Assembly: GCA_026993075.1 (NCBI GenBank)
Contig: JALWUQ010000048.1
Coordinates: 1 to 57,957 of the forward strand
Source of the DNA: Campylobacteraceae bacterium
GTDB taxonomy: Bacteria; Campylobacterota; Campylobacteria; Campylobacterales; JALSKU01
Reading direction: 5' to 3'
Length of the DNA: 57,957 nucleotides
The translations under genes and the position numbers were made by a program. The notes beneath the pieces are model-generated. The model searched no databases. It saw only the letters and a list, made by a program, of their open reading frames with translations, and was not told where the DNA came from. Position 1 is the first letter of the stretch; the number at the start of each line of letters is the position of its first letter. Of the stretch, positions 26,083 to 47,642 are shown piece by piece.

Positions 26083-27555
26083 TTACTTATACCTTTGTAT
26101 TTTTTTAGGATAATATAAAGATTTATAAATATCCTCATATTTGCTTGCAGCATCAATCCAACTAAAATGCTCTCTCATAGCTCTTAGCTGCATCATTTTA
26201 AAATCATCCCTCTCATTATAGTATGTTTGAACTGCCCATTTGATTGTATGATAAAGTGCATCCGGTGTTGCGAAAAGAAATTTAAATCCATTTCCTTTAT
26301 CTTTTTGCTTATCATAATTTTCTATAGTATCATCAAGCCCACCGGTTGCTCTTACTATCGGCAAAGTACCATATCTAAGGCTATATATTTGATTTAGCCC
26401 ACAAGGCTCAAATAGTGATGGCATTAAAAATATATCGCTTCCAGCTTCAATCTTATGGGCTAATTTATTATTATACCCGATATAACATCCAAATTTATCA
26501 TGATATCTTGAGGCAACTTCACTAAAAAATCCTTCTGCCCATTTTTCACCGCTTCCAAGCATCACAATTTGTATATCCAAATCCATAAGCCCTTCAATAA
26601 CAGAAGCTATCAACCCTATTCCTTTTTGTTCAACCAACCTGCCTACAAAACCAATCAAAAGAGTTTTGGCTTTTATAGGCAATCTAAAAGCTTTTTGTAA
26701 ATCCTTTTTACACTCTTTCTTGCCATTAAAACTATCTATATCAAAATTTTTAATAAGGTATTCATCAACAGCAGGCGACCACTCATCATAATCAACTCCA
26801 TTTAATATACCAAAAAGCTTATATGAATGAGCTTGTATATGCTCTTGTAAACCAAAGCCAAATTCACTTGTCTGTATTTCATGTGAGTATTTTTTGCTGA
26901 CTGTATTAAAAGCATCACAAAAAGCAATGCCACCTTTTAAAAGATTGACTCTATCCATAGCTTCAAGTTCAAGCGGAGTAAAATGCTCCCAACCCACACT
27001 TAAAATATTTATCACGCTTTTATCAAAATTTCCCTGATGCTGTAGATTGTGAATAGTCAATATACTTGAAGTTTCTTTAAAAAATTCATCCTTTAAATAA
27101 AGTGTTTTTAAAAGTATGGGTATGCTTGCGCTGTGCCAGTCATTGGCATGAATAATGTCCGGTTTAAAATTTAATGCTTTTGAAAGAACAAGAGAAGCTT
27201 TGGAAAGAAAGATAAAACGAATGGCATTATCATCATAAGCAAAACCATTTTCATCATAAAGCCCGCTTCTTCCAAAAAACCCTTCATGTTCTAAAAAATA
27301 AATCTCTACTTTACTTTTTGGCAAATACCCTCTGTAAACTCCAGCCCAAAGCTCACCTAAACTCCCCATATCAACACCTAAAGAGATGGGAAGTTTTTCT
27401 AATTTATCTCTTTTGATATCATAATATCTTGGCATTACAAGCTTTATTTCATGCCCTAATTTTTTCAAAGCTTTTGGCAAAGCTCCACTTACATCACCCA
27501 AGCCCCCTGTTTTTGCAAAAGGAGCAACCTCACTCGCAACAAAAAGTATATTCAT
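26083..27555 (-). CDS. glgA: Glycogen synthase (GT5), paralog 1
   Basis: EVAPFAKTGGLGDV, HNLQHQG, GRLVEQKG and PSLFEPCGLNQ are present. Confidence 0.92.
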   Translation of the reverse strand: MNILFVASEVAPFAKTGGLGDVSGALPKALKKLGHEIKLVMPRYYDIKRDKLEKLPISLGVDMGSLGELWAGVYRGYLPKSKVEIYFLEHEGFFGRSGLYDENGFAYDDNAIRFIFLSKASLVLSKALNFKPDIIHANDWHSASIPILLKTLYLKDEFFKETSSILTIHNLQHQGNFDKSVINILSVGWEHFTPLELEAMDRVNLLKGGIAFCDAFNTVSKKYSHEIQTSEFGFGLQEHIQAHSYKLFGILNGVDYDEWSPAVDEYLIKNFDIDSFNGKKECKKDLQKAFRLPIKAKTLLIGFVGRLVEQKGIGLIASVIEGLMDLDIQIVMLGSGEKWAEGFFSEVASRYHDKFGCYIGYNNKLAHKIEAGSDIFLMPSLFEPCGLNQIYSLRYGTLPIVRATGGLDDTIENYDKQKDKGNGFKFLFATPDALYHTIKWAVQTYYNERDDFKMMQLRAMREHFSWIDAASKYEDIYKSLYYPKKIQRYK

Positions 27556-28376
27556 AGTAGTTTTGCCCCCTCTAATGATGAATTTTTTAATTTACTGATT
27601 ATGATATTCAAATCCTCACAACTTTGCAAAAGTGCATAATTTTTTATATTTTCTTTAATCACATCCAACAGATACGGATTTGTCCTCACAACACCTCCTC
27701 CTAAAATCAATACTTTCGGATTAAACAGTGTGATAATATTTCCGGCTGCTACAAGTAAGGCTTCGATGAAATTTTTATATATTTTTTTAGCATTTTTATC
27801 TTCTGATGCAGATAATTCTTCCAAATCAAACTTTGGAAGATCATAATAATTTTCCCACTTTTCAAGACCACTACCACTTGCAAACAGTTCAATACAGTTA
27901 TTTTTACCGCATCCGCATAGAAAAGGAGCTTTTTTAAAAGGAATATGCCCTATCTCACAAGCTATATTTTTTTCACCTCTGACAATCCTTCCATTATCGG
28001 ATACGGCTGAGCCCAAACCTGTTCCTACAAAAAGCATAGCTATATTTGATTCATCCGTATAGTTTCGCTCAGCTATCAATGCACATTTTAAATCATTTTC
28101 TATTTTTAAAGCAATTTTATATTTTTTAAAAATGTATGATTTTATATCTTTTTCTTTAATTTTTATATTCGGAGAAGACAGTATCACGCCATCATCTACT
28201 TGACCGGCAAAAGATATACCTATAAAATTGATATCATCATGCTTTAATATTTTTTTTTCAATATATTCTATCAAGTCAACTTCAATGCTTAGAACCTCTT
28301 CTTTTAAGATTATATCATTTAGAAAAAGTTCACATCTAAGTTTCGTACCACCAATATCAATATACATTTTACTCAC
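27552..28376 (-). CDS. ROK family glucokinase
   Basis: DIGGTKLR, GTGLGSAV and the zinc motif CGCGKNNCIE are present. 274 aa. Confidence 0.8.
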   Translation of the reverse strand: MSKMYIDIGGTKLRCELFLNDIILKEEVLSIEVDLIEYIEKKILKHDDINFIGISFAGQVDDGVILSSPNIKIKEKDIKSYIFKKYKIALKIENDLKCALIAERNYTDESNIAMLFVGTGLGSAVSDNGRIVRGEKNIACEIGHIPFKKAPFLCGCGKNNCIELFASGSGLEKWENYYDLPKFDLEELSASEDKNAKKIYKNFIEALLVAAGNIITLFNPKVLILGGGVVRTNPYLLDVIKENIKNYALLQSCEDLNIIISKLKNSSLEGAKLL

Positions 28377-29758
28377 AATACTTCCTTATAAAGTTTTATG
28401 TATTTTTTCGCACTTTTTGCAAAAGAGAAGTTGCATTTCATATCAAATTTAACAATTTTTTCATAATTTTTTTTATTTTCAAATATACTTAAAGCCTTTT
28501 TTATAGCGTTTAATAATTCATCTTTTTGGAATTTATCAAACTTAATACCCATCGCACACTTTCTTTCGTCTTGAAAAACAGTATCTTTTAGCCCACCAAT
28601 GCCATGCACTATAGAAATGACACCATATCTTGCTGCTATCATTTGATTTAGTCCGCAAGGCTCAAAAAGTGAAGGCATGACTAAAAAATTTGCCGAGGCA
28701 TACATCTTGTGAGACATACCCTCATCATAACCTTTTATAAAGTGGATATTTTCATATTTTTTTGATAAAAGCATAAGATTTACTTCATATTTTTTTTCAC
28801 CTTCACCCAAAATAACAAATTCAAGTTTCATTTTGGAAATATCTTTTAAAAGATCAATTATCAAAGAGATACCTTTTTGCTCAACCAATCTGCCTATAAA
28901 TATAAAAAGAGGTCTTTTGCTATTTTTTATACTAAGATTTTCATAAAAAAGATTTCTATTTTTTTCTTTTTTATTTAAAGTTTTTACATCATAATTCTCT
29001 TTTATAGATTTATCATTTTTAGGATTAAAATATTCTGTATCGATACCGTTTAATATTCCCTCAAGCTTATATTTATATTTACTTAAAAAACCATCAAGTC
29101 CACAGCCATACTCCTTTGTCTGTATCTCTTTTGCATAAGTAGGACTGACAGTTGTTATCCTATCACTATAAGCTATCCCAGCTTTTAAAAGATTGACTTT
29201 GCCGTAAAACTCAAATGATTCTTGATTAAAATATTTTTTAGGTATTTCCAAAATACTTAAAATATCTTTTTCAAAAACTCCTTGATATGCGAGATTATGG
29301 ATAGTAAATACAGACTTTACCGCTGACTTTTTTTCTTTTAAGATAAAAGCCGCCAAAGCCGTATGCCAATCATTTAAATGAACAATATCTGCTTTTAAAA
29401 GCTCTGTCACTTTTGAAATGGCATAAGAAAAAATCCCAAATCTAAGAGAGTCATTTTTATATCCGTAAAGAGTGTCAACTTCGCATAAAATATCATTATA
29501 AACAAACAAAGTGTCAATTTTTTTATCAGTATGCCTGAAAAGCTCAATTTCATAAAAATTATCCCCAAAAGTTAAGATAAATTTTTTACCAAAAGGCATA
29601 ATGTTAAATTTATCTTTATCAATAAACTTATACATTGGAGTTATATTAATAATTTCACATATTTTATTAAGCTCAAGCGGTAAAGAGTGAGCCACATCAG
29701 CCAATCCTCCACTTTTTGAGTATGGAAAGACTTCACTTGAGGCGAACAAAACTCTCAT
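28373..29758 (-). CDS. Glycogen synthase (GT5), paralog 2
   Basis: EVFPYSKSGGLADV (KSGGL variant), HNLAYQG, GRLVEQKG and PSLFEPCGLNQ are present. Confidence 0.88.
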   Translation of the reverse strand: MRVLFASSEVFPYSKSGGLADVAHSLPLELNKICEIINITPMYKFIDKDKFNIMPFGKKFILTFGDNFYEIELFRHTDKKIDTLFVYNDILCEVDTLYGYKNDSLRFGIFSYAISKVTELLKADIVHLNDWHTALAAFILKEKKSAVKSVFTIHNLAYQGVFEKDILSILEIPKKYFNQESFEFYGKVNLLKAGIAYSDRITTVSPTYAKEIQTKEYGCGLDGFLSKYKYKLEGILNGIDTEYFNPKNDKSIKENYDVKTLNKKEKNRNLFYENLSIKNSKRPLFIFIGRLVEQKGISLIIDLLKDISKMKLEFVILGEGEKKYEVNLMLLSKKYENIHFIKGYDEGMSHKMYASANFLVMPSLFEPCGLNQMIAARYGVISIVHGIGGLKDTVFQDERKCAMGIKFDKFQKDELLNAIKKALSIFENKKNYEKIVKFDMKCNFSFAKSAKKYIKLYKEVL

Positions 29759-30777
29759 ATAATTGTACTTTTAAGGAGCTCTGCCGCATTTTCAGGAGAT
29801 AGTGGATTTATATGTATCTTGCTTTGAAGCTCAAATCCTCCTACCTTGTAAATTCTTGGAATTATCCTTATGTAAAAACGGTAAAATTCATCAATTTCAT
29901 CAAAAAATTCTTCTGTTTCATAACTTTTTTGCATCGGAGGATTTTGAATATACAAATTATAATCAAAATTTCCTATTTGAACTTTCAATTTAGACAAACT
30001 ATCTTTTAACAACTCTGATATTTCGTCCAAAAGCTTTTTATCTAAAGTATCTATTGAGCTTATTTTTACTTTTGGCATTATCATAACTTCAAAAGAAAAA
30101 GCACTGGCATAAGGACAAAAAGATATAAAGTTTGCACTCTCTTTTATAACTCTTTTATTTTGCTCCAATTCATAATCTACGATATCTTTAAAAATACTTC
30201 TACCATGAGTTTTGTAATGGTTAAAATAATATTTTAGATTTGATAATTCATTTTTTGGGATTAGAGGCATCGCTATTAGTTGGGTATGAACATGAGGAAG
30301 AGTTGCACCTGAGTTTTGACCTTGATTTTTAAAAATACAAAAGTAAGTCAATCTTATATCTTTTTTCAAATCTTCAACTCTAAGCTTGATAACGCTCAGC
30401 CAATCCTTCATCTGTAAAGTCGATAAATCTTCAAAACAAATTATATGTTTTGGTGTATCTATGATAATTTCATGAGCACCAAAGCCATCTTTTTTTTCAT
30501 AAATACCATCGATATTGGATATATCAGTTGCTTCTATTTGAACTGCTTTGTAGAGATTTGGCACAACCCTAACATCCCAAGAAGAGCTGTTTTTAGCTTT
30601 TAAAGAAAATATTTCAGGCGGAGTCATATCTTCATGTCCACTACAAAACGGACAAAGAGTTTTTTCAACACTTTTTTTATCAATCTCTTGAAAAAGGTTG
30701 GGTCTTGTTAGCCTGTTTGGTGCTATTATCACTTGTTCATTACTTAATAAGTCGTATCTAAACTCAGACATTTTCAA
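29755..30777 (-). CDS. GalT-family hexose-1-phosphate nucleotidyltransferase / NDP-hexose phosphorylase
   Basis: Zinc motif CPFCSGHE and the active-site HxHxQ (HVHTQ). 340 aa. No galK/galE lies nearby. Confidence 0.75.
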   Translation of the reverse strand: MKMSEFRYDLLSNEQVIIAPNRLTRPNLFQEIDKKSVEKTLCPFCSGHEDMTPPEIFSLKAKNSSSWDVRVVPNLYKAVQIEATDISNIDGIYEKKDGFGAHEIIIDTPKHIICFEDLSTLQMKDWLSVIKLRVEDLKKDIRLTYFCIFKNQGQNSGATLPHVHTQLIAMPLIPKNELSNLKYYFNHYKTHGRSIFKDIVDYELEQNKRVIKESANFISFCPYASAFSFEVMIMPKVKISSIDTLDKKLLDEISELLKDSLSKLKVQIGNFDYNLYIQNPPMQKSYETEEFFDEIDEFYRFYIRIIPRIYKVGGFELQSKIHINPLSPENAAELLKSTII

Positions 30778-32800
30778 CCTTTAATACACCATTGATTTCA
30801 AGATTTCTACAAAAAGGAAAAACAAGTGCAAAGCTCACTCCCTGAGCCATAAGTTCAAACCCTTTTTCACTTTGAGAGACAGTATTTAGTGGAGTCATCA
30901 ATAGTTTAAAAGGTAAATTTAAAGAAAATGATAACTTTTTTTTCGTATATTTATCGATTAAAAAAAATTCTTTTATATTTTCAAATTTTATATCATCTAA
31001 TAAAGAAGTATCATCACAAAATACATTTTTCAAATCGGCAAAATGAAGATTAAATTCCAAAGCATAAAGATATTCTTTTTCACTTTTTGAATTTATTTTT
31101 ATATCAAACGCTATTCCCTCTTTTAAAAATTGATATTTTTTTGTGATAATCGTATCATACTTTTCATCAAAATATATCCCACCTTCTCTTTTAAATACAA
31201 TCTTATTTTTATCTTTTATCAGCTCAAACGGTTGATTTGCAAAATCTCCATATTCCCAAAAAGAGCATCTTTTAAAATTTTCCATAGTAAAAGTTTTATT
31301 ACTTATATGATCAATAAAAGAATTTTTAATATACCAGTCAAAACTAAGAGCATCTTTTATCTCTTTATTTACCTCTATTTCTTTGTTATGGATAGTTTCA
31401 ATTTCATCTTTTGACTTCTTTATTTTTGAAGTCTTTTGTTTTTCTATCATTTTTTGATGATAAGACTCTTCTCTTCTTGTTAAAGTATTTTGATAGTTAA
31501 ACTTTTTATCTCTTTGCAAAAATTCTACCATTTGTCCGCCATAATGGCTATCAAACCTTATTATAAAGTTATTTTTTATGATTTTTACTTCATCATATCC
31601 ATTCATATCTATATCATTTATCTCTACAGCTTCTTTATTTTTATATCTTATGTTTTCACATTCACATAAATAAGAGTAAGCATTATCTCTTAAATTTGGC
31701 AGATACAAACCCCCAAAAACTCCATGCCAAAAAACATCATTTGTCTGAAGTTTATAAAGTGAGTCTAAAAACTTTTTATTTTTTACCTTGTTGCTTGATA
31801 CTTCCAGCATCCTTTTATGAAGCCTGTTTGATTCATCATACTTAACAAAAAAATTTTTCCAAGTACCACCTTTTACAAACTTATCCGTATCATCACCGTA
31901 AACTTCTTTGGTTTTAGTTTGTATCTTTTCAAGAGTTATCGCATCTTTTGCTCTTAAACTCCATTCACCCATCTCATAATATGAAACATTTTGCAAGTAT
32001 GCGATACCTTTTGCTTTTTGCTTTTGATAATACTCATTAAAATGCATACATTCTATGGATTTATCTTTTAAAACAGTCGTAAAAAACTCTTCAAGCCATC
32101 CTTTTTCATATACCCATTCATAAGTTCCAGGCCACAAGCCAAACTTTTCTGCATCATCAAAGATGATTGCCGCACTTTGTTTTGTTTTATATAACTCTTT
32201 TATATCCTGTATAACTTCTTTTACATTTTTAAAAGGGATTGCATATCTTAATTTTTTACTTATAGGAAAAAGAGCTAGTTTCTTAGCATCGTTTTCACTA
32301 AAATAATATCCATCCAAATCTTCACTGTCAAACCCACTAGCACGAAAATGATAATCATCAACCATCGCATACGAAACTTTGCATGCAACAAAATCATTTA
32401 TAAGTGAATCCTCCCAAACTCGCTCAGTAAGCCAAGCTCCTTTTGGTATTTTTGAAAATTCTTTTTTTATATATTTATTTAATTTTTCTATTTGAGAAAT
32501 TCTATCAATACTTGGTATCGAGCTTAAAACAGGCTCATAAAATCCTGCTGTAAAAAACTCAATAGTACCATAATCACTTAATTTTTTTATATTCAAAAAT
32601 ACTTCAATATAATTTTTCTTTATATAGTCCAAAAGCCAGCCGCTACAATGAAGTGCTATTTTAAATTCTGGAAATTTTTTTAAAACTTCAAAAAAAGGCT
32701 TATAACATTTCTCAACGGCTTCATCAACAGCCTCCTTAAAATTGTCCACAGGCTGGTGCATGTGAATTCCAAAAAGAAATTTTATCTTCTTATTTTGCAT
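30764..32800 (-). CDS. GH57 4-alpha-glucanotransferase-like enzyme
   Basis: The N-terminus FLFGIHMHQPVDNF resembles the Thermococcus litoralis GH57 glucanotransferase. The nucleophile block is GAWLTERVW and the acid/base block is FDDAEKFG. 678 aa. Confidence 0.8.
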   Translation of the reverse strand: MQNKKIKFLFGIHMHQPVDNFKEAVDEAVEKCYKPFFEVLKKFPEFKIALHCSGWLLDYIKKNYIEVFLNIKKLSDYGTIEFFTAGFYEPVLSSIPSIDRISQIEKLNKYIKKEFSKIPKGAWLTERVWEDSLINDFVACKVSYAMVDDYHFRASGFDSEDLDGYYFSENDAKKLALFPISKKLRYAIPFKNVKEVIQDIKELYKTKQSAAIIFDDAEKFGLWPGTYEWVYEKGWLEEFFTTVLKDKSIECMHFNEYYQKQKAKGIAYLQNVSYYEMGEWSLRAKDAITLEKIQTKTKEVYGDDTDKFVKGGTWKNFFVKYDESNRLHKRMLEVSSNKVKNKKFLDSLYKLQTNDVFWHGVFGGLYLPNLRDNAYSYLCECENIRYKNKEAVEINDIDMNGYDEVKIIKNNFIIRFDSHYGGQMVEFLQRDKKFNYQNTLTRREESYHQKMIEKQKTSKIKKSKDEIETIHNKEIEVNKEIKDALSFDWYIKNSFIDHISNKTFTMENFKRCSFWEYGDFANQPFELIKDKNKIVFKREGGIYFDEKYDTIITKKYQFLKEGIAFDIKINSKSEKEYLYALEFNLHFADLKNVFCDDTSLLDDIKFENIKEFFLIDKYTKKKLSFSLNLPFKLLMTPLNTVSQSEKGFELMAQGVSFALVFPFCRNLEINGVLKVENV

Positions 32801-32812: not shown

Positions 32813-34828
32813 TTATAAAAACCAATTTTTCTCAAATTCTTCATTACAAACTTCTATATCGCCAAAGATAGGCACAAATTCGCTATTTGATTTTTTATCA
32901 GTGATTTCTATTTGAAGATTGATTTTTTTCATATTTTTACATAATTTTTTATCTATTGACAATTCCAATATATCTTTGATTGCCAGCTTCACTCCATTTT
33001 GTTCATATTTTTCCATGATCGGAAGTGTTACTATCTTCTTCAACTCTTTTAAATGAATTTTTATCTCTTTATACTCTTTAAAAAGTTTTTTATTATCCAC
33101 ATCAAGTCGTATATATATAAAATTTTCATCTTCACCATAATAAAGCTGTTGCACAATACCTCTGCTTGTATCCATAGTCGAATATGCCTTGCTCTCATCA
33201 ACCAAACCAGATCCCAGCCATTCATAAAATGAATCTTTTTTGCCGTTTACATTAGCTGTTATATTAAACTGCGGTTTTGTTTGTGAGAGTTTAGCTTCTC
33301 TCTCTTTGGATATAGGTAACATTAGATTTGATGGTATTTTCATATTTGCAAGCTTGTATATATCTTGCAAATGAGATCTAAAAAGCAAATCAAACTCTTC
33401 TAAAAAATCACTAAAATGATCATCTCCATACCACCAAAACCAATCTGAACATTCACTTGCTAAAAAATGTTTTTCTACTAATTTGTTAGTTTTTTCATCA
33501 AATACGCACTCTTTTGTATCTCTTTTGGTTTGATATATAAGCTCCCAAGCTCTATTTTTTTCATTATGCCCCACCCAAGTATCAAAAGTACCATATATCC
33601 AACTTCCCGGATGTAAAGTCGTTAATTTATTTTTTTTAAAATTATTTATTTCATCAAAATTTCTTGTTTGTATGTTTTTCTCATTTGAAAGTTTTTCATA
33701 CAATTTCATAAAAAAATCCATCGCATTGTTTTGATAAAATTCCCATGCGTTTTCGCCATCAACTATCACAAAAACAGTTACATCTTCTTTCTCGGAGTTT
33801 ATATTATTTACTTTTTGAACAAAATCATTTACCGCATCATTCGCTTTTTTATATCTATATGAAAAACCTATTAAATCACTTAGAAAATGGTCTCTAAAAG
33901 CTATAAATACATCACTGTATTCAAATAATTCATATATCAAATCTTTTTGATTATTTTTTAAAGTTTTAAAAAGTATCGCTTCATCGGTTGCTACCCATTT
34001 GATACCTTTTCTTTTATACAATTCTAAACTCTTTTCATCCACCGCCCCCTCAGCCGGCCAAAAACCATTTGGATTTGCACCAAATACTTCTTTGTATAAT
34101 TTTATAGAAAAATCAACCTGTTTTAAAGCATCATCTTCCAAAGAAAAATACTCTTTTGGTAAAGTAGTATCAGGATTTGAAATCTTCGCATTGTTCATAT
34201 CCAAAAGAAGTGGAAGTATCGGATGGTTTAAAGGTGTAGTTGAAAGTGAAATCTGTCCTTTTTTTAAAAGCTTTGCGTAAAAAGGAAGAATTTTTGGGAT
34301 AAATTTTAAGAGTGTATCTAAAAGATTTGCTTTATCAATGGCATTGTATCCCTTTTTTTTATCTATTAAATTCTTAATTATACTATCATTTTGTCTTAAA
34401 AAATTCCCACACCATGAAAGCATAAATAAAACTTCAAGCTCTATTAGTTCATTATCATCATAACTATCTTTGTAAAACAATTCTGCAAATCTTGGAAAAC
34501 TTGATACCATAGTGTCAAATTGGGAGGATTTGCATATCTTTATGAGTGATTTTTTATCAACCTTTGTTAACTCTTTTGGATCTTTTATCCAAGAGAGTAA
34601 AAACTTATCTTTTTTATATCCGTTTTTTTCATACACTTGGATTTGTTGTATCAAAGGAGGTGTAAGATTGAAAGTTGCTTTTAGATTTGGAAAAAGCGAT
34701 AAAAGCCAAGGCATTTCATAATAATCCTTAATAGAGTGCAAAAACACCCATGGCATCTGCAAAAACCCTTTCTTATCACGATAATCAGGCTGATGCATAT
34801 GCCATAAAAAAGATAAATTAACTGACAT
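32813..34828 (-). CDS. GH57 family glycoside hydrolase (alpha-amylase/amylopullulanase-like)
   Basis: LSFLWHMHQPDY, GFWPAEGAV and VIVDGENAWEF are present. 671 aa. Confidence 0.8.
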   Translation of the reverse strand: MSVNLSFLWHMHQPDYRDKKGFLQMPWVFLHSIKDYYEMPWLLSLFPNLKATFNLTPPLIQQIQVYEKNGYKKDKFLLSWIKDPKELTKVDKKSLIKICKSSQFDTMVSSFPRFAELFYKDSYDDNELIELEVLFMLSWCGNFLRQNDSIIKNLIDKKKGYNAIDKANLLDTLLKFIPKILPFYAKLLKKGQISLSTTPLNHPILPLLLDMNNAKISNPDTTLPKEYFSLEDDALKQVDFSIKLYKEVFGANPNGFWPAEGAVDEKSLELYKRKGIKWVATDEAILFKTLKNNQKDLIYELFEYSDVFIAFRDHFLSDLIGFSYRYKKANDAVNDFVQKVNNINSEKEDVTVFVIVDGENAWEFYQNNAMDFFMKLYEKLSNEKNIQTRNFDEINNFKKNKLTTLHPGSWIYGTFDTWVGHNEKNRAWELIYQTKRDTKECVFDEKTNKLVEKHFLASECSDWFWWYGDDHFSDFLEEFDLLFRSHLQDIYKLANMKIPSNLMLPISKEREAKLSQTKPQFNITANVNGKKDSFYEWLGSGLVDESKAYSTMDTSRGIVQQLYYGEDENFIYIRLDVDNKKLFKEYKEIKIHLKELKKIVTLPIMEKYEQNGVKLAIKDILELSIDKKLCKNMKKINLQIEITDKKSNSEFVPIFGDIEVCNEEFEKNWFL

Positions 34829-37350
34829 TATTTATCCATCCATTTTTCTATTTTATCTCTGTAAAGATTATTTAAATCTTCTCCTCTTTCTTTAGTTTTT
34901 GCTTGAACATAAAGATTTAAAAAATCATCGAATTGATCTGGTATCATAAGTATCCAATCTTCTTCATTTTCCCATATTTTAACTCCATCAACTGTTGAGG
35001 ATTTTTTGCTTTTTGCTTTTTGTAAAAATTTTCTCATAATTTTACCTTTTAACGCTTGAGAACACTCTATTTTGCATTGGTGATAATAAAAATCTTCAAA
35101 ATTTCCAGCTATATTTGAAAGTTTTTCTTTTTGACGAGATAACATTTCCATGATTTTCAAACTTGCATAAATGGCATCTCTGTGTAGTGAAAATTCACTA
35201 AAAGCAAAATTACCATCGATTGTCGCTATAAGGTCGTACTGCTTCATTTTATCTGCTTTGAAATTTGCATATTTTCCTCTTTTTATGATAAGATTTTCAA
35301 ACTTCTCATCCATAAAATCAGGTGCCCAGCTGGGCAAAAATACAACTTTCTTCTTATCTTTCGCCTCAAGATTAAAAAGATACATAACACAAAGCAATGC
35401 TTTTATCTTGTTTAAAACCTCTCCTTTATCTGTGATGATAGAAAGTCTTTGACCATTTGGATACATAAGTATTCCCAAACTCAAACCAAGACTTTTTACG
35501 ATGGCGGAAACTTCTTCTTTTGATTTTTCTTCAATGTGTAAAATATTTGCCATCTTGTGATAATCAGTATAAGCATTTAGTAAAATATTTTCCACCTGAA
35601 TATCGGCCATAATTTCAGGAAAGATATCTTTAGTTCCACCAAACATCAAATCAACTACTACTTTAAAATTATTTTTTTTGATAATACTGTGATCAATAGC
35701 GTTTTCAATGGCACTTTTATACTTATGGCATTCATCTAAATGATGAACATAGTTTTCTCTTATTCTTCCTATCCTGTTATATTCAACTCTTCTAAATTTT
35801 TGTTGGAAAAATGCTTTTTCAACTGATTTTGCCATATCAGTATCTATCCTAAGTCCCTCTTCAGTAAAAAAGGTAAATTCTACACTAGTAGGGTCATTCA
35901 TATTTTGTCTAAAATAAATACCTGCAATTAAGCTGTCATCATTTCCTAAATTATATCTTAAAACCGCCGGAGGCATAGCCTTTAAATCTATCACATTAAT
36001 ACCCCCAGAAAGCAATCCTCCTAAAAATGCTCTCTTTAACATCCTTGCACTTTTACTGTGATCTCTTGCTACTATAACCGTACTTCCAATAGGCAACTGT
36101 GAGGCAAATGCTTCTGAAATCTGGCAAGACATTTCACAAGAAAGCTCAACATTACTCTTTCCTATAACTCTTCCATATTCAATAAGAGAATTTTTATATT
36201 TACTTCCCCATACGATATTATTATTAACGATAGAGGTTGCCTCTATACTTTTATGAGGCCAGACTGTCACATCTTGTTCAAATTTTACAAGTTTGCCGAC
36301 ATCACACCCCTCAGCCAAAACAACTCCAGCCTTTGCCGTAACAAAATCATCTATTTTGTTATCATTACAAATGACGCAATTATCAAGTATACATTTTTTA
36401 CCAACATCTATATCATTCCAAAAAACAGAATTTCTAACTCTACAATCTTCACCTATGACTACATTATCACCTATAACAACATTATGAAGCCTTGTTCTTT
36501 TACCTATCTTGACATTTGTTCCTATAACAACACTATCGACTATCTCAACACTTGAATCAATACTGCTTTCTCCGGTTAAATGCAAAATCCCATCAGGATA
36601 TTTTATCTTCTTTCCTGGTATTTCAAAATCTAATTTATTATTAAAAATATCATCATACACTTCTTTGTAACTCTCGGGGTTACCCACATCCCTCCAGTAA
36701 CCTTTCGCGTTATAAGACATCAAATCTACTCCTTTTTCCATAAGAAGTGGAAATAAATCTTTAGCAAAGTCGAAGCTGTCCTCTTTTGGAATATACTCCA
36801 ATATCTCAGGCTCAATCACATAAATACCCGTATTTATAGTATCACTGAAAACTTCACCCCAGCTTGGTTTTTCTAAAAATTTTTCTATTTTTCCCTCATC
36901 ATTTGTAATAACCACGCCAAACTGAAGAGGGTTTTCAACAGAAGTTAGAGTTATGGAGAGTTTTGCATTTACTTTGTAATGATGTTTAATAATTTTTTCA
37001 AAATCAAAATCACTTACCAAATCTCCACTGACTATGATAAAAGTAGTATCTAAAAATTCTCTTGCACATCCAACAGCCCCGGCAGTCCCGTAGTCTTCCG
37101 CAGGCAGTACATACTCTATATTTGCACCCCACTTACTTCCATCTCCAAAGTAATTTTTTATAATTTCAGGTTTAAAATACAACAAAAAAATTATATCTTT
37201 TATACCGATATCAACTAACTTTTTTAAAGTATGCTCCATCATAGGAAAATTAAATATCGGCAACATTGGCTTTGGCATCGAATTGGTCAGCGGTTGGATT
37301 CTCGTACCAAATCCGCCTGCCATCATCACGGCTTTTATCTTCTTGGGCAT
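34828..37350 (-). CDS. Sugar-1-phosphate nucleotidyltransferase + left-handed beta-helix fused to a degenerate PGM/PMM-like domain
   Basis: 840 aa. The N-terminus has MMAGGFGTRIQPLT...MPKPMLP and hexapeptide repeats (VVIGDNVVIGEDCRV...). The C-terminal half aligns to the PGM/PMM fold but lacks the signature loops (see findings). Confidence 0.8.
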   Translation of the reverse strand: MPKKIKAVMMAGGFGTRIQPLTNSMPKPMLPIFNFPMMEHTLKKLVDIGIKDIIFLLYFKPEIIKNYFGDGSKWGANIEYVLPAEDYGTAGAVGCAREFLDTTFIIVSGDLVSDFDFEKIIKHHYKVNAKLSITLTSVENPLQFGVVITNDEGKIEKFLEKPSWGEVFSDTINTGIYVIEPEILEYIPKEDSFDFAKDLFPLLMEKGVDLMSYNAKGYWRDVGNPESYKEVYDDIFNNKLDFEIPGKKIKYPDGILHLTGESSIDSSVEIVDSVVIGTNVKIGKRTRLHNVVIGDNVVIGEDCRVRNSVFWNDIDVGKKCILDNCVICNDNKIDDFVTAKAGVVLAEGCDVGKLVKFEQDVTVWPHKSIEATSIVNNNIVWGSKYKNSLIEYGRVIGKSNVELSCEMSCQISEAFASQLPIGSTVIVARDHSKSARMLKRAFLGGLLSGGINVIDLKAMPPAVLRYNLGNDDSLIAGIYFRQNMNDPTSVEFTFFTEEGLRIDTDMAKSVEKAFFQQKFRRVEYNRIGRIRENYVHHLDECHKYKSAIENAIDHSIIKKNNFKVVVDLMFGGTKDIFPEIMADIQVENILLNAYTDYHKMANILHIEEKSKEEVSAIVKSLGLSLGILMYPNGQRLSIITDKGEVLNKIKALLCVMYLFNLEAKDKKKVVFLPSWAPDFMDEKFENLIIKRGKYANFKADKMKQYDLIATIDGNFAFSEFSLHRDAIYASLKIMEMLSRQKEKLSNIAGNFEDFYYHQCKIECSQALKGKIMRKFLQKAKSKKSSTVDGVKIWENEEDWILMIPDQFDDFLNLYVQAKTKERGEDLNNLYRDKIEKWMDK

Positions 37351-37373: not shown

Positions 37374-37655
37374 TTAGACTTCTATGGCAGAATTAGTACT
37401 CCCAAAACTATTTTGAACTTCCAGAGCATCTGCTTCATTTTCCCAAATGCTACCATCTATCAAATATTTAAATTCATAAATTTGTCCTATCGGAAGTATT
37501 TTTGTTATATAAAAATCTCCATTTTTCTTTTGTTTCATTTTTTCTTTACTCCAGTCACTCCAAGAACCTGTTATCTCAACTGTTTTCTCCTCATTTGTTG
37601 GAACATAAGTAAATGTAACCCAAGCTTTATCCGCATTTTTCTTAACTTTCAACAT
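37374..37655 (-). CDS. Stand-alone CBM48 (AMPK-beta-type glycogen-binding) protein
   Basis: 93 aa. VEITGSWSDWSK...GDFYITKILPIGQIYEFKYLIDGSIWEN...NSFGSTNSAIEV matches the CBM48/GBD consensus. There is no signal peptide. Confidence 0.75.
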   Translation of the reverse strand: MLKVKKNADKAWVTFTYVPTNEEKTVEITGSWSDWSKEKMKQKKNGDFYITKILPIGQIYEFKYLIDGSIWENEADALEVQNSFGSTNSAIEV

Positions 37656-37667: not shown

Positions 37668-39305
37668 TTATTTTTTATAAACTTTTTCATAATATTCTCT
37701 AACCATCCTGGAAGAGTCAAAATACCGTATATCATTCATACCATTTTGTATGATTTGCACCCATTTTTTTTCATCATCATAGTAAGTAGGCAGTATCTCA
37801 TCTTCTAAGATACTCATCATACTTTCATAATCCTTTTTATCTTGCTCTTCTATACTAAGAGTTGTATCTGCATGATGGATTGTAAATGAATTAATATCAT
37901 CTTTATAAAACTCATCATGCCATCCATCGTCAATAGAAAAATGGATACAGGCATTTGAAACTGCACTCATTCCGCTAGTACCGCTTGCTTCTCTTGAATA
38001 CCTTGGAGTATTTAGCCAAATATCACCTCCTTGTTTTAAAAGTTTTGAAAGCCTCAATTCATACCCTATTAAGACAGCTACATTCTTATACTCTTTCGCA
38101 ATTTTAATAAGCTCATTAAACATATTGACAGCACGATAATCAAGTGGATATGGTTTACCTGCCCAAATGATTTGCACAGGTCTTTTAGTATCATTTATAA
38201 GTTTTTTAAATCTTTGCATATCATAAGTTAAAAGCCATGGTCTTTTATATTCGGCAAATCTTCTTGCCCATACGATAGTTAAAATATCAGGATCAAATAT
38301 CTTTCCTGTTTGGTCTGCGACTTCTTCAAAAAGCAACCTTTTTAAATGTTTTTTTCTCCCAATTATCTGGTACTCTTCATGCTCTTGAAACCAGCTAACT
38401 AACTGTTTATCAGCCCAATACCTCATATTTTGTGCATTTGTTATACCTATTATCTCACATTTTCCTTTTACCCCACTCCACATTTCATTAGCAACTTTGG
38501 CATGTATTTTAGAAACAGCATTGGCAATTTTTGAAACTTTTAAAGCTCCTATTGTTAAAGAAAAATTATCATCTTCATAATTTAATATTTTTTTTACTTC
38601 TTCTGCTCCTAAGCTGCCAAAAAAGCCCATCCTTTCTAAAAGGCTTATATCATGTTCTTCATTTCCTGCTATTTCTGGAGTATGAGTAGTAAAAACGACT
38701 CTTTTTTTAACTTCTTCCAAACTTTCTAAATTTTCCAAAAGCTTAAATGCCAAAGGCAAGGCATGCCCTTCGTTTAAATGATAAATATCTATCTCTTCAT
38801 TAAGGGCTTCAAGAACCTTTACTCCACCTATACCTAAAACTATCTCTTGAGCGATTCTTGTTTCTTCGTTGGCATCATACAGTTTGTGAGTAATCGTCCT
38901 TGCCAAATAATCATTTTCAAAAACATCGGTTGAGAGCAGTATAAGAGGTGCGGTATCAAAACAAGATGAAGGTAAAAGATAAGCTTTTACTGTTATTGGC
39001 TTGGAATTTATCATAACTGTTACTTTGATATTTAAATCTCTTATAAAATAGTAAAATTTTCTTAAAAAATCTATCTTTAAACTTCTGTCTTCATGTCTGT
39101 GTTGATCATAATATCCATAACTCCACAAAAGCCCTACACCGATAGTATTTTGTCTTAAATCATTCGCACTTCTAAGATGAGAACCTGCTAAAAAACCAAG
39201 TCCTCCCGAGTAATTTTTAAAAGCTTGATCTATTGCAAACTCCATCGAAAAGTAAGCGACTTTTGTGCTGTATCTTTCATTTATATCATAATCAATCAGT
39301 TTCAT
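37668..39305 (-). CDS. GT35 alpha-glucan phosphorylase-family paralog lacking the PLP lysine (candidate pseudoenzyme)
   Basis: 545 aa. YSGGLGFLAG, HLNEGH, FTTHTP and ARRFAEYKR are conserved, but the PLP motif reads EASGTSGMS instead of GTSGMK. Confidence 0.8.
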   Translation of the reverse strand: MKLIDYDINERYSTKVAYFSMEFAIDQAFKNYSGGLGFLAGSHLRSANDLRQNTIGVGLLWSYGYYDQHRHEDRSLKIDFLRKFYYFIRDLNIKVTVMINSKPITVKAYLLPSSCFDTAPLILLSTDVFENDYLARTITHKLYDANEETRIAQEIVLGIGGVKVLEALNEEIDIYHLNEGHALPLAFKLLENLESLEEVKKRVVFTTHTPEIAGNEEHDISLLERMGFFGSLGAEEVKKILNYEDDNFSLTIGALKVSKIANAVSKIHAKVANEMWSGVKGKCEIIGITNAQNMRYWADKQLVSWFQEHEEYQIIGRKKHLKRLLFEEVADQTGKIFDPDILTIVWARRFAEYKRPWLLTYDMQRFKKLINDTKRPVQIIWAGKPYPLDYRAVNMFNELIKIAKEYKNVAVLIGYELRLSKLLKQGGDIWLNTPRYSREASGTSGMSAVSNACIHFSIDDGWHDEFYKDDINSFTIHHADTTLSIEEQDKKDYESMMSILEDEILPTYYDDEKKWVQIIQNGMNDIRYFDSSRMVREYYEKVYKK

Positions 39306-40565
39306 CTATTTATCGCCTCCAAATTTTTTAACTAATATTTTTTTACCATTTTCAACGCCTGGCTGGTCATAAGTATTTATCCCAAGAAGCAAGCCTGTAT
39401 ATGAAGTAAGCAATTCAAAATACATTATCATTTCTCCTATATTTTCTTCACTTATTATATCTAAAGTTATACTGTCAACAGGAATATTTTCAGCAATTAA
39501 GCTCTCTTTTGTCGCATCGCACTCTGCATTTATAAGTTCATTAAAAGAGTGAGAGTTTATATAATCAACTTTTTCAATATTTTTTAAAGATATAGAAGGA
39601 ACAATCAAATCATTTTCAAAATCTTCAACTTTTATAAATGTGACTGTCTTGTCTCTTACTCCTTGCATAATAAGTTGTAAAAAAGAGTGTTGATCTACTG
39701 AGCCTATGTGTCCAATAGGAGTCAAACCGGTATGTTTGCCTTCTTTGTCAATTTTTCCAAGAGACTCAGCCCATAACTGCACGAACCATTTGGTAAAATC
39801 TTCCAAACAATCAGCATAAGAAAAAAGTACATTCACAGGGTATTTTTTTTGTGCATAAAAAAGAGCTTTTAAGCCTATACTCTCAATTCTGCTGTCAAAA
39901 AATTTATCCATTATCGATTTTGCACCTTTTAGTATCGATTCAACATCAAATCCTGCCAATTTCAAAGGAACTACTCCAACCGCACTTAAAACAGAAAACC
40001 GCCCTCCTACATTTTGAGGTATAACAAAAACTTTGATGCCGTGAAAATCAGCAAATTTACAAAGAGGCGAACCATCATCGCTAACAACAAGCACTCTTTT
40101 ATTCTCAGCTGTATTTAAATCTATATCAAAATGTGCAATAACTGTCTTAAAAATAGAAGTTGTCTCTATAGTTCCTCCGGATTTGGATATTACTACAAAT
40201 ATAGAATTTTCTTTTTTTATCTGTGAAAATATTTTTGATATACTCAAAGGATCAGGATTTTCCAAAAAAAGTAAATTTTTAATATTTTTATATTTATGCT
40301 TTAATACAGAATTTACAGCTTTTGTACCCAAAGATGAACCGCCAATCCCTATAACTACAATATTCTCAGCACTTTGATAAATCCCATCTTCATTTATAAT
40401 ATAATTTTCTACCTCTTTCAAAAGATGAATAGAATCATCAGGAAGATTATAATATCCACTTACTCCTTTTTCTCTCTCTTGTATCATCGAGCCAAATGCA
40501 TTTAGCAAAAGTATACTGTTTTCTTCATCAATTTCTACATCCAAATATCTCTCATACTGTATCAT
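39306..40565 (-). CDS. pgi: Glucose-6-phosphate isomerase
   Basis: 419 aa. IGIGGSSLG and GGRFSVLSAVG are present. Confidence 0.9.
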   Translation of the reverse strand: MIQYERYLDVEIDEENSILLLNAFGSMIQEREKGVSGYYNLPDDSIHLLKEVENYIINEDGIYQSAENIVVIGIGGSSLGTKAVNSVLKHKYKNIKNLLFLENPDPLSISKIFSQIKKENSIFVVISKSGGTIETTSIFKTVIAHFDIDLNTAENKRVLVVSDDGSPLCKFADFHGIKVFVIPQNVGGRFSVLSAVGVVPLKLAGFDVESILKGAKSIMDKFFDSRIESIGLKALFYAQKKYPVNVLFSYADCLEDFTKWFVQLWAESLGKIDKEGKHTGLTPIGHIGSVDQHSFLQLIMQGVRDKTVTFIKVEDFENDLIVPSISLKNIEKVDYINSHSFNELINAECDATKESLIAENIPVDSITLDIISEENIGEMIMYFELLTSYTGLLLGINTYDQPGVENGKKILVKKFGGDK

Positions 40566-40566
40566 T

Positions 40567-42210
40567 TTATCCCTCCTTAAAAACTTTTTTTATCATTTGT
40601 TTAGCTTCGTTTTGTATAGATTTTAAATGCTCCAACGATACAAAACTCTCTGCATAAATCTTATAAATATCTTCTGTCCCAGATGGTCTCAAAGCAACCC
40701 AACTGTTTTTTGTAACTATTTTAACTCCACCTATTTTTGCACCATTTCCTGAAGCTTTTGAAAAAATATACTCTATCTTCTCACCGCCTAAACTCTTTTC
40801 TTTTATATCTTTTGGCTCTATATTTTTCAATATATCTTTTTGCTCTTTGGTTGCTGTAACATCTATTCTTGCATAGTATGCTTTTGAGAAACTTTTTTCA
40901 AAATCGCTGTAAATATCACTTAAATCTCTTTTTTGACTTGCAATGATTTCAGCTGAGAGGAGATTGAGTATAATACCGTCTTTATCTGTAGTCCAAACAC
41001 TCTCATCAAACCTCAAAAAAGAAGCCCCCGCGCTCTCTTCACCGCCAAATCCAAGTTCGCCGTCAAACAAACCTTTTGAAAACCACTTAAAACCAACAGG
41101 CACTTCATATATCTTTCTGTTTAGAGATGTTGCAACTTTGTCTATCATAGAACTTGAAACTAAAGTTTTTCCTATTTTTAATCCTTTGCTCCAATGTCTA
41201 TGTTTAAACAGGTACCAAATAGCAACACTAAGATAATGATTTGGATTTAAAAGTCCGCCTTTTGGTGTGACTATACCATGCCTGTCAGAGTCAACATCAT
41301 TGGCAAATGCTATATCATACTTATCTTTTAGTCCAATCAACCCTGCCATCGCGTAAACAGATGAGCAATCCATCCTGATTTTACCGTCATGGTCTAAATG
41401 CATAAAAGAAAAAGTAGGATCTACAAATGGATCTATAATATCCATATCAAGAGAGTATATCTCATTTATCTTTTTATAAACAGCTATACTTGCCCCACCC
41501 AAAGGGTTGACTCCTATCTTTAATTTTGCTTTTTTTAGCAAATCCATATCAATAATATCTTTTAAAGATTCTACATAAGGTGTGATAAAATCATACTCTT
41601 TTATATATCCGCTTCGCATAGCATCTTCAAGTGAAATACTCTTAACACTTAAAAGATTATTTTTCAAGATTTCATTTGCTTTTTTTTCTATGATATTTGT
41701 TATATCACTCTCAGCCGGTCCTCCATTTGGTGGATTATATTTATAACCTCCATCACTTGGCGGGTTGTGTGAAGGTGTTATAACCACTCCATCACCTTTT
41801 TTATTATTTGTTTTATTATATTCCAATATGGCAAATGAAACTAAAGGGGTTGGCGTATACTCATCATCTTTAGCTATAAATACATTTACCTCATTTGCAG
41901 CAAAAACTTCCAAAGAAGTGAGTTGTGCGGGAATAGAAAGGGCATGTGTATCTTTACCTAAAAATAAAACTCCATCAATACCATTTTCTTTTCTATAATC
42001 ACAAATAGCTTGAGAGATAGCTTTAACATGGTACTCATTAAAGCTTTTTTTGTAGGCATTTCCTCTGTGACCAGAGGTTCCAAATGAGACTGTTTGCTCT
42101 TTTTTACTCATGTCCGGAGTTAACATATAGTATGCACTTATAAGTGCTGGTATATTTTCAAGTTTATCTTTTGAGACAAGTTTTCCCGCATTTTTATCTA
42201 TCATTTTCAA
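40567..42210 (-). CDS. pgm: Phosphoglucomutase (alpha-D-glucose phosphate-specific)
   Basis: 547 aa with all four loops intact: TPSHNP, DVDSDR, GGEESAG and RPSGTED. Confidence 0.93.
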   Translation of the reverse strand: MKMIDKNAGKLVSKDKLENIPALISAYYMLTPDMSKKEQTVSFGTSGHRGNAYKKSFNEYHVKAISQAICDYRKENGIDGVLFLGKDTHALSIPAQLTSLEVFAANEVNVFIAKDDEYTPTPLVSFAILEYNKTNNKKGDGVVITPSHNPPSDGGYKYNPPNGGPAESDITNIIEKKANEILKNNLLSVKSISLEDAMRSGYIKEYDFITPYVESLKDIIDMDLLKKAKLKIGVNPLGGASIAVYKKINEIYSLDMDIIDPFVDPTFSFMHLDHDGKIRMDCSSVYAMAGLIGLKDKYDIAFANDVDSDRHGIVTPKGGLLNPNHYLSVAIWYLFKHRHWSKGLKIGKTLVSSSMIDKVATSLNRKIYEVPVGFKWFSKGLFDGELGFGGEESAGASFLRFDESVWTTDKDGIILNLLSAEIIASQKRDLSDIYSDFEKSFSKAYYARIDVTATKEQKDILKNIEPKDIKEKSLGGEKIEYIFSKASGNGAKIGGVKIVTKNSWVALRPSGTEDIYKIYAESFVSLEHLKSIQNEAKQMIKKVFKEG

Positions 42211-42213: not shown

Positions 42214-42450
42214 TTAAAAAATTTCGTTCGACACCTCATCTATATGACCTTTTTTACCACCTTTTATATGAGCATAAGCAACCACTAAAGCTACTACAGC
42301 TGAAAAGACAATAAAATATAAAAAATTAAATATCATATCAGCATAATAATCAATCATTCCAGAAAGTGCTGTAAAAAGTACAAAATATGTTAAAAATAAT
42401 TTTATATATCTTTTATATGGAAACTTTTTATTATGTTTTTTATGACTCAC
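42214..42450 (-). CDS. Small two-TM membrane protein
   Basis: 78 aa. A basic N-terminus is followed by two hydrophobic helices. The start overlaps the gpmA stop by 11 nt, and the stop lies 3 nt before pgm. Confidence 0.55.
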   Translation of the reverse strand: MSHKKHNKKFPYKRYIKLFLTYFVLFTALSGMIDYYADMIFNFLYFIVFSAVVALVVAYAHIKGGKKGHIDEVSNEIF

Positions 42451-44157: not shown

Positions 44158-44159
44158 CT

Positions 44160-46286: not shown

Positions 46287-46287
46287 C

Positions 46288-47562: not shown

Positions 47563-47619
47563 TTTGTTTACTCCTTGTTTAGAATATTTTCTTATTTGCT
47601 TTTCTTTTGCTCAATCGTG

Positions 47620-47642
47620 CAACCAACGGGGTCCGCTGGTTG
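47620..47642 (-). repeat. GC-rich hairpin in the fba-eno spacer
   Basis: Minus strand: CAACCAGCGG-acc-CCGTTGGTTG. This gives 10 pairs including one G-U, which is an A-C mismatch on the plus strand. No U-tract follows. Confidence 0.6.

Follow-up and report, generated by a model that had tools for sequence, protein, structure and literature searches.

We examined a 57,957-nucleotide (nt) stretch of DNA from a Campylobacteraceae bacterium (assembly GCA_026993075.1, contig JALWUQ010000048.1; hereafter, the window), and in it a gene that fuses a sugar-1-phosphate nucleotidyltransferase to a domain with the fold of phosphoglucomutases and phosphomannomutases (PGM/PMM). An initial interpretation made from the letters of this DNA (hereafter, the sequence-only reading) held that the first half of the encoded protein keeps the signatures of its enzyme family, while each signature loop of the second half is replaced. 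The fusion gene starts with ATG, with a putative ribosome-binding site, AAGGA, ~9 nt 5' of the start. The gene, its domains and the four former mutase loops are as follows (positions in the window; residues are those of the 840-amino-acid (aa) protein):

34828..37350, reverse strand: fusion gene, 840 aa, encoding an NTP_transferase domain, a left-handed beta-helix and a PGM/PMM-like pseudoenzyme domain (open reading frame, Pfam and NCBIfam)
36646..37335, reverse strand: sugar-1-phosphate nucleotidyltransferase catalytic domain, residues 6-235 (PF00483)
36286..36564, reverse strand: left-handed beta-helix of hexapeptide repeats, residues 263-355 (PF25084, PF00132)
34858..36162, reverse strand: PGM/PMM-like four-domain module without the catalytic residues, residues 397-831 (TIGR03990, phmmer, Foldseek)
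35893..35910, reverse strand: former phosphoserine loop, RQNMND (481-486) instead of TASHNP; Asn483 occupies the Ser position
35446..35463, reverse strand: former Mg2+ loop, YPNGQR (630-635) in place of DGDADR, with the three Asp gone
35209..35226, reverse strand: former sugar-binding loop, ATIDGN (709-714) instead of GEENGG
34924..34944, reverse strand: former phosphate-binding loop, IPDQFDD (803-809) instead of RxSGTEP (RASGTEP)

The nucleotidyltransferase domain is recognized by Pfam with a score of 176.9 bits against a gathering score of 21.2 (E 7e-52), and the beta-helix that follows it matches PF25084 (LbH_EIF2B, the eIF2B-epsilon type; E 4e-18) and PF00132 (Hexapep; E 5e-9). Within the C-terminal half, Pfam finds PGM_PMM_I at residues 397-520 (E 2e-15) and PGM_PMM_II at residues 543-643 (E 1e-9), with a weak trace of domain III and no match to PGM_PMM_IV anywhere in the protein. 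The NCBIfam model TIGR03990 (Arch_GlmM) aligns end to end with this half (E 2e-49), and the protein scores below the curated mutase cut-offs, both for this model (168.8 bits vs 439) and for TIGR01455 (70.8 vs 447.55). The peptides on which the sequence-only reading relied were all located, both in the N-terminal half (GGFGTRIQPLT at 12-22, KPMLP at 27-31, DYGTAGAV at 86-93 and VSGDLV at 107-112) and in the C-terminal half (IYFRQNMNDP at 478-487, GILMYPNGQRL at 626-636, DGNFAF at 712-717 and MIPDQFDD at 802-809). Pfam and the motif positions agree in placing nucleotidyltransferase signatures and a hexapeptide beta-helix in the N-terminal half. An AlphaFold2 model of the fusion reached a mean predicted local distance difference test score (pLDDT) of 79.7, with residues 410-840 mostly at 80-95, and shows short beta-strands over residues 247-381.

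The registration of the four loops was checked in three ways, namely by phmmer pairwise alignment, MAFFT alignment and superposition of the AlphaFold2 model. By phmmer, the C-terminal half matched PGM/PMM structures of Thermococcales (9du5, E 3e-29; 1wqa, E 4e-27), and a MAFFT alignment with canonical stand-alone mutases put the loops in the same columns. When the modelled C-terminal half was superposed with Foldseek on 9du5, 1wqa, 2f7l and 9ix8, it gave target-normalized template modelling (TM) scores of 0.83-0.85; the superposition on 9du5 and 1wqa spans ~465 columns and retains the four-domain alpha/beta fold. The Arg of the N-terminal VRG motif of 9du5 is Ile in the fusion. The hidden Markov model (HMM) alignment and the structural superposition led to one picture, that of four replaced loops in an intact fold, and phmmer, MAFFT and AlphaFold2 concur that all four loops are degenerate, as had been claimed. 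Misregistration is unlikely because the three alignments concur and conserved blocks flank each loop; on these same grounds, we ruled out a true bifunctional enzyme with a misaligned Ser/Asp set.

The nearest relatives of the C-terminal half are archaeal-type PGM/PMM enzymes (Thermococcus kodakarensis 9du5, Pyrococcus horikoshii 1wqa and Sulfolobus tokodaii 2f7l), at 20-23% identity. Unlike these enzymes, the fusion lacks the phosphoserine, the Mg2+ ligands and the Arg/Ser/Thr that bind phosphate. With the catalytic loops gone, the Ser position variable in close relatives and a genuine phosphoglucomutase gene (pgm) in the same operon, the view that this domain is not a mutase was upheld, and we hold with high confidence that it is not a phosphohexomutase.

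We then aligned the protein with 24 homologs that share 58-90% identity with it. The catalytic domain was the most conserved region (mean column identity 0.82, with 47% of columns invariant), followed by the beta-helix (0.72), and the four PGM-like domains stood at 0.71, 0.60, 0.70 and 0.70. Within the Campylobacterota/Aquificota clade, the replacement loops themselves, YP(N/H)GQR, ATxDGNFAFTEF and DWILMIPDQ, are nearly invariant, and this near-invariance leads us to a selected, non-catalytic role for the C-terminal domain. The former phosphoserine position varies among N, S, H, D and K in close homologs, with the flanking F480, D486 and P487 conserved. The C-terminal half is a conserved pseudoenzyme under purifying selection, re-purposed rather than decaying. 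The loss of all canonical catalytic residues might in itself suggest a functionless relic that is drifting towards loss. This we find scarcely credible: thousands of proteins from many phyla retain the whole architecture, the domains show 60-71% mean column identity with many invariant residues, on par with the beta-helix region, and the C-terminal fold is modelled with confidence (pLDDT as above).

Loop degeneracy proved to be a trait of the whole family, a point absent from the sequence-only reading. Using the C-terminal half as the HMMER query, we searched 1.8 billion representatives exhaustively and obtained 802 clusters at E<=1e-10, with ~830-residue fusions dominating the best 150; in this match list, canonical loops were confined to stand-alone proteins of ~450 residues. 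Among 76 full-length fusion representatives from many phyla, the Ser-His pair was found in none, the three Mg Asp in two, the phosphate loop in none and the complete mutase catalytic set in none. A profile of distant fusions gave at least 8000 matches at E<=1e-20, including Deltaproteobacteria, NC10, Armatimonadetes, Actinobacteria, Firestonebacteria, Elusimicrobia and Firmicutes. The close relatives, at 58-98% identity, come from Sulfurovum, Hydrogenimonas, Nitratiruptor, Nitratifractor, Sulfurimonas and Hydrogenothermus (Aquificota), and the window locus is 98% identical to that of a Campylobacteraceae metagenome-assembled genome (MAG).

The same alignments bear on whether the PGM-like domain could be an enzyme with a non-canonical active site, such as a phosphatase, another phosphotransfer enzyme or a mutase with recruited residues. 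Its replaced loops are strongly conserved; in the wider family, Ser persists at the old phosphoserine position in 45 of the 76 representatives and an Asp...Glu pair is often left in the metal loop (DxGGEK); and a semi-conserved Thr/Ser (the DPTS motif) lies a few residues C-terminal to the old Ser position. Yet in the clade of the window protein the Ser position is occupied by any of five residues, the three metal Asp are lost, the VRG-aligned Arg has become Ile, the Arg/Ser/Thr of the phosphate loop have given way to acidic or hydrophobic residues, and a genuine mutase gene accompanies the fusion. We therefore consider such an enzyme very unlikely.

The fusion architecture itself is not new, as it is abundant in databases, where it is named by homology. 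The matches to the distant-fusion profile are called 'mannose-1-phosphate guanyltransferase', '.../phosphomannomutase' or 'nucleotidyltransferase', and the JGI name, for example for P0014, P0015, P0069 and P0274, is 'mannose-1-phosphate guanylyltransferase/phosphomannomutase'. A PGM-like domain on 'MPG1 transferase' proteins is also an existing entry in domain databases. Because the catalytic set is incomplete in all 76 representatives, the 'phosphomannomutase' half of the name very probably reflects systematic mis-annotation. A full-text literature search found no paper on the fusion protein, and the uniformly dead yet conserved mutase half of this family appears to have been previously unrecognized.

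We next considered the surroundings of the fusion gene. It lies in a tightly packed run of genes on one strand, from pgm (42210) to glgB (24166), whose transcription order is pgm, pgi, alpha-glucan phosphorylase, CBM48, fusion, GH57, GH57, GalT-like, GlgA, ROK, GlgA, GlgB. These genes, and the others of note in the window, are:

40567..42210, reverse strand: phosphoglucomutase with intact loops (TIGR01132, 803.6 bits, cut-off 778)
39306..40565, reverse strand: glucose-6-phosphate isomerase (NF003016, 552.6 bits, cut-off 487)
37668..39305, reverse strand: alpha-glucan phosphorylase, 545 aa (TIGR02094, 427.7 bits)
37374..37655, reverse strand: stand-alone CBM48 protein (AMPK-beta-type glycogen-binding module), 93 aa (PF16561 AMPK1_CBM, E 2.9e-11)
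32813..34828, reverse strand: GH57 glycoside hydrolase, 671 aa (PF03065, E 4e-51)
30764..32800, reverse strand: GH57 protein of the alpha-amylase/4-alpha-glucanotransferase type, 678 aa (PF09095, PF03065, PF09094)
29755..30777, reverse strand: GalT-like HIT-family nucleotidyltransferase, 340 aa, motif PHVHTQ (phmmer to 1z84 and 2h39)
28373..29758, reverse strand: GlgA paralog 1 (GT5 glycogen synthase), 461 aa (TIGR02095, 489 bits, cut-off 328)
27552..28376, reverse strand: ROK-family sugar kinase, 274 aa
26083..27555, reverse strand: GlgA paralog 2, 490 aa (TIGR02095, 542.6 bits)
24166..26082, reverse strand: GlgB branching enzyme, GH13, 638 aa (NF003811, 923 bits, cut-off 741)
42440-51132, reverse strand: gluconeogenic run of phosphoenolpyruvate (PEP) synthase, a DeoC/LacD-type class I aldolase, enolase, glyceraldehyde-3-phosphate dehydrogenase and a histidine-phosphatase/PGAM-like protein
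44160-46319, reverse strand: second alpha-glucan phosphorylase, 719 aa, with an N-terminal DUF3417

The pgm of this operon is genuine, with the motifs TPSHNP145, DVDSDR305, GEESAG390 and RPSGTED508 all intact, and, in agreement with the original account, the window holds two GlgA paralogs and no GlgC. No second NTP_transferase homolog accompanies the fusion in the window. The fusion and the 671-aa GH57 gene may be translationally coupled, because the start codon of the latter overlaps the stop codon of the former; in this GH57 protein the GH57 catalytic domain alone is recognized, with no NCBIfam match. A 317-bp 'gap' 5' of the fusion, considered as a regulatory RNA, was ruled out, as it encodes the small CBM48 gene. 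The window contains no match to any Rfam family, and promoter- and terminator-like sites around the fusion gene were no commoner than in shuffled sequence. In this operon, a GH13-type GlgB is accompanied by two GH57 genes. The gluconeogenic run lies directly upstream of the glycogen operon and is co-oriented with it, the two forming a ~27 kb block that leads from PEP to glycogen. Elsewhere in the window, a tyrosine recombinase gene (Phage_integrase family, XerC/D-like; 11779-12606, reverse strand) is followed by open reading frames at 12615-13625 and 13637-14239 without a Pfam match.

To place this operon in a wider context, we collected 80 related genome loci by an alignment-based search (a single-protein query gave three), and counted neighbours in those Campylobacterota loci that were long enough to judge each one. 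The order phosphorylase-(small CBM48)-fusion-GH57-GH57-GalT-like-GlgA-(ROK)-GlgA-GlgB was found in ~50 Campylobacterota loci. GH57 lies directly 3' of the fusion in 51 of 54 eligible loci, the GalT-like gene within 7 kb downstream in 41 of 43, GlgA within 9 kb in 34 of 38 and GlgB within 10 kb in 23 of 34. The same operon order holds in the isolates Sulfurovum sp. NBC37-1 and Hydrogenothermus marinus (Aquificota), and in NBC37-1, as in the window, pgm belongs to the operon. In these two isolates, the phosphorylase nearest upstream of the fusion is of the DUF3417 type, adjoining CBM48 in Hydrogenothermus and followed by pgm and pgi in NBC37-1. The small CBM48 gene, which the sequence-only reading had not mentioned, immediately precedes the fusion in another 21 loci and in H. 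marinus; its product could be a partner that tethers the operon enzymes to glycogen.

Two irregularities in these loci were set aside. An in-frame CBM48-fusion gene in locus L005, a would-be 'Rosetta stone', is an artefact in which a run of 100 N (8801-8900) joins two frames, and the odd match lengths in L034 and L063 trace to a duplicated 5' fragment of 86 residues and to a reporting artefact rather than to insertions in the gene. The L034 fragment (10001-10258, in a Sulfuricurvum MAG) copies the first ~86 residues of the fusion, with 73% identity to the window protein, and lies ~340 bp upstream of the full-length gene, as either a rearrangement remnant or an assembly artefact.

With regard to GlgC, no GlgC-like gene was found within 10 kb of ~70 glycogen operons, and no second NTP_transferase homolog in 83 loci totalling 1.25 Mb. 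A DNA scan of genome contigs for the GlgC motif KPAVPFGG in AT-rich codons gave at least 120 matches, and among the matches listed none was from Campylobacterota. On the strength of this context, we consider it quite likely that the fusion works in glycogen metabolism in this clade.

Further from the clade, fusions at 34-37% identity occur in Endomicrobia, Elusimicrobia, a deltaproteobacterium, Rokubacteria, Chlorobi relatives, Ignavibacteria and an erysipelotrich. In six of 12 distant loci, a complete PGM/PMM gene with TASHNP, DGD(A/G)DR and RxSGTE lies directly 3' of the fusion, and five of these six also carry the GEESG loop:

L071, 12733-14154: canonical PGM/PMM gene 3' of the fusion
L072, 12870-14138: canonical PGM/PMM gene 3' of the fusion (open reading frame from the first Met; tblastn match from 12720)
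L074, 12890-14320: canonical PGM/PMM gene 3' of the fusion
L075, 5040-6464: canonical PGM/PMM gene 3' of the fusion
L077, 6571-7971: canonical PGM/PMM gene 3' of the fusion
L078, 9448-10884: canonical PGM/PMM gene 3' of the fusion

The loci with this adjacency belong to Endomicrobia, Elusimicrobia, Deltaproteobacteria and Rokubacteria. The arrangement suggests an ancestral pairing of the pyrophosphorylase-pseudomutase with a real mutase, and may indicate that the fusion originated next to a mutase gene. Wherever it is visible, a genuine mutase is supplied separately, which fits a non-catalytic C-terminal half of the fusion.

We turned next to the class of enzyme that the N-terminal half represents. 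Its nucleotidyltransferase hallmarks, GGFGTR (12-17), K27, D110 (in VSGDLV), K161 (in FLEKPS) and D221 (in GYWRDVGNP), are invariant in the 24 homologs and align motif for motif with 7whr and with GMPPB (7d72). By phmmer, the nearest solved relatives are 7whr, GMPPB 7d72, VTC1 7x8j and tlr0611 8x7s (E ~5e-46 to 5e-41), and Escherichia coli GlgC (5l6s) follows at E 4e-16 only. The GlgC models fall far below their cut-offs (TIGR02091, 135.9 vs 424.9; NF003670, 140.3 vs 470), and the best NCBIfam match, the mannose-1-phosphate guanylyltransferase model NF052502, also stays below its own (248.3 vs 440). From its residues, the N-terminal half looks like an intact NDP-hexose (nucleoside diphosphate hexose) pyrophosphorylase of the GDP-mannose-pyrophosphorylase/CugP-like branch rather than of the GlgC branch. 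Given its similarity to both GDP-mannose and UDP-glucose enzymes, with the models below cut-off, its sugar and nucleotide specificity is unreadable from sequence.

GDP-mannose pyrophosphorylases of the GMPPB/VTC1/Leishmania type, and tlr0611, share the layout of residues 1-370 (NTP_transferase and left-handed beta-helix) and the motifs GGxGTRxxPLT, KP, the metal-binding Asp, EKP and WxDxG, with Foldseek matches down to E 5e-17. These proteins, however, end after the beta-helix, whereas the fusion adds 455 residues of PGM/PMM fold, and the genomic context of the fusion in this clade is one of glycogen rather than mannose. The fusion could conceivably be a GDP-mannose pyrophosphorylase for cell-envelope glycans, with its operon position unrelated to its substrate. 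The best NCBIfam match, a mannose-1-phosphate guanylyltransferase model, and the best Protein Data Bank (PDB) matches, GDP-mannose pyrophosphorylases, would agree with this, as would the loci of other phyla in which the fusion sits beside a PGM/PMM gene, and once beside a GT4 glycosyltransferase, without glycogen genes. We nevertheless deem it improbable, given the NF052502 score of little more than half the cut-off; the close relative 8x7s, named as a UTP-glucose-1-phosphate uridylyltransferase, which shows that the branch includes glucose enzymes; the tight packing of the fusion, whose stop codon overlaps the next start codon, into a glycogen operon that two phyla share; and the lack of mannose-utilizing genes in the window, the rest of which is housekeeping and holds no mannose or envelope-glycan/lipopolysaccharide genes.

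GlgC belongs to the same superfamily as the N-terminal half of the fusion and shares its domain order (catalytic domain and beta-helix) and its presumed place in the pathway beside GlgA and GlgB. The partners of GlgC, namely GlgD of Firmicutes and the plant large subunits, offer a further likeness, in that an active pyrophosphorylase is paired with a non-catalytic regulatory module, as in the fusion. In those systems, however, the extra module is a dead pyrophosphorylase paralog, whereas in the fusion it is a dead mutase in cis; and allosteric regulation, a trait of GlgC systems, is for the fusion a proposal only. Precedents for GlgA without GlgC do exist: Pseudomonas aeruginosa relies on UGPase, archaeal GT5 GlgA enzymes take ADP-, UDP- and GDP-glucose, and a GDP-glucose pyrophosphorylase is present in Haloarcula (PMC11046441).

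Another gene of the operon touches on the same metabolite. The GalT-like protein, whose HxHxQ motif is kept, matches 1z84/2h39 over its full length at E 9e-48, vs 4e-13 for E. coli GalT (phmmer). We take 1z84 to be the Arabidopsis ADP-glucose phosphorylase At5g18200, presumably that of McCoy et al. 2006. This Arabidopsis enzyme resembles the GalT-like neighbour and not the fusion, and concerns the same metabolite pool (ADP-glucose and glucose-1-phosphate). The plant enzyme catalyses the reaction ADP-glucose + Pi <-> ADP + glucose-1-phosphate, and is described as degradative (PMC4136846). In the operon, the GalT-like enzyme could be a second source of ADP-glucose, or could instead drain or proof-read the pool of this metabolite. 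For ADP-glucose phosphorylase, the equilibrium reportedly favours breakdown. The bacterial glycogen-operon role of the GalT-like gene seems unstudied in the literature that we found, and its co-conservation as an alternative ADP-glucose route was absent from the earlier account.

NDP-glucose might come not from the fusion but from a GlgC encoded elsewhere or from the GalT-like enzyme (ADP + glucose-1-phosphate -> ADP-glucose + Pi), in which case the fusion would make another sugar nucleotide or act mainly as a regulator or scaffold. The kinship of the GalT-like protein with 1z84 and its retained motif speak for this possibility, as do the presence of its gene alongside the fusion at 41 of 43 loci as well as in the genomes of the two isolates, the match of both GlgAs to the ADP-glucose-type model TIGR02095, and the chance that a glgC lies elsewhere in the genome. 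We nonetheless regard it as unlikely, in view of the degradative direction described for the plant enzyme, the conservation of the catalytic domain above every other part of the fusion, which argues for an active enzyme, and the absence of GlgC-like genes within 10 kb of the ~70 glycogen operons surveyed.

Taken together, these results lead us to favour, with modest confidence, a composite explanation in which the fusion supplies NDP-glucose to the GlgAs and its dead mutase domain has a selected, non-catalytic role. According to this proposal, the N-terminal catalytic domain would convert glucose-1-phosphate and NTP to NDP-glucose, the two GT5 GlgA synthases would use the product, and the fusion would do the job of GlgC. 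The C-terminal half, of archaeal-type PGM/PMM descent, is without the phosphoserine, the Mg2+ ligands, the Glu of the sugar loop and the phosphate loop, and the real mutase is the product of the separate pgm of the operon. The dead domain might then control the pyrophosphorylase, or assemble or dock the fusion, be it with itself, the CBM48 protein, GlgA or a non-phosphorylated ligand. Of this explanation, the architecture, the missing catalytic residues, the purifying selection, the conserved operon and the lack of a second NTP_transferase homolog in these loci rest on observation, whereas the glucose-1-phosphate substrate, the takeover from GlgC and a part in regulation or docking are our inferences.

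The suggestion of the sequence-only reading that the fusion may be the NDP-glucose source for the two GlgAs therefore stands in part: the fusion is the sole NTP_transferase homolog in the loci and belongs to a conserved glycogen operon, but the function is inferred, and the N-terminus lies nearer to GDP-mannose enzymes. Several observations weigh against it. Among solved and curated proteins, the N-terminal half is closest to GDP-mannose pyrophosphorylases; the GlgC models match the fusion weakly (136-140 bits), and both GlgAs fit the 'ADP-glucose type'; the ADP-glucose phosphorylase homolog of the operon could in principle make or destroy ADP-glucose; and a glgC could possibly lie elsewhere in the genome. 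Moreover, fusions outside the Campylobacterota/Aquificota clade sit outside glycogen clusters, so the substrate may differ across the family, and the AlphaFold2 model, with a predicted TM score (pTM) of 0.57, is uninformative on contacts between the two halves. On balance, we find it somewhat probable that the NDP-glucose comes mainly from the fusion rather than from a GlgC.

As to the dead domain, any specific role is at best tentative. A phospho-sugar sensor is disfavoured because the phosphate-binding Arg/Ser/Thr are lost and acidic residues stand in their place; speculatively, the new loops, with their many aromatic and polar residues, could accommodate a protein partner or a neutral sugar. 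Non-catalytic uses of related folds offer a likeness in principle. PGM5/aciculin (6y8z, found among the structural or sequence matches) we take to be a non-catalytic member of the phosphohexomutase fold; GlmM, we believe, inhibits the c-di-AMP cyclase CdaA (the GlmM-CdaA structures 7olh, 7ojs and 9g69 were among the matches); and GMPPA is presumably a pseudoenzyme regulator in the GMPPA-GMPPB complex (7d72, likewise matched). None of these fuses both enzyme types or belongs to bacterial glycogen operons.

A bolder and rather doubtful possibility is that the fusion represents an unrecognized class, the 'missing GlgC' of Campylobacterota and Aquificota, with a dead phosphoglucomutase domain as its control or targeting element. 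Here, the YPNGQR, DGNFAF and IPDQY/F loops might, for example, bind glucan or another non-phosphorylated ligand; alternatively, the dead domain might dock the fusion to the CBM48 protein or to GlgA on the glycogen particle. If this were true, thousands of proteins in many phyla named 'mannose-1-phosphate guanylyltransferase/phosphomannomutase' would be pyrophosphorylases regulated by a pseudo-mutase.

Bacterial glycogen synthesis is usually described as controlled at GlgC. In Campylobacterota and Aquificota, one clade of the fusion family is a constant member of a glycogen operon that lacks a gene of the GlgC type, and this, like the CBM48 and ADP-glucose-phosphorylase-like genes that travel with it, appears to have gone unrecognized before. 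Its carriers are chemolithoautotrophs of vent and sulfidic habitats (Sulfurovum, Sulfurimonas, Nitratiruptor, Hydrogenimonas, Arcobacter relatives and Hydrogenothermus). Metabolic reconstructions that count the fusion as a mutase or a GDP-mannose enzyme would be misled. If the fusion makes the glucose donor, the control point of carbon storage in these bacteria would move to an unstudied protein, and the fusion would clearly exemplify the recruitment of a pseudoenzyme domain in cis.

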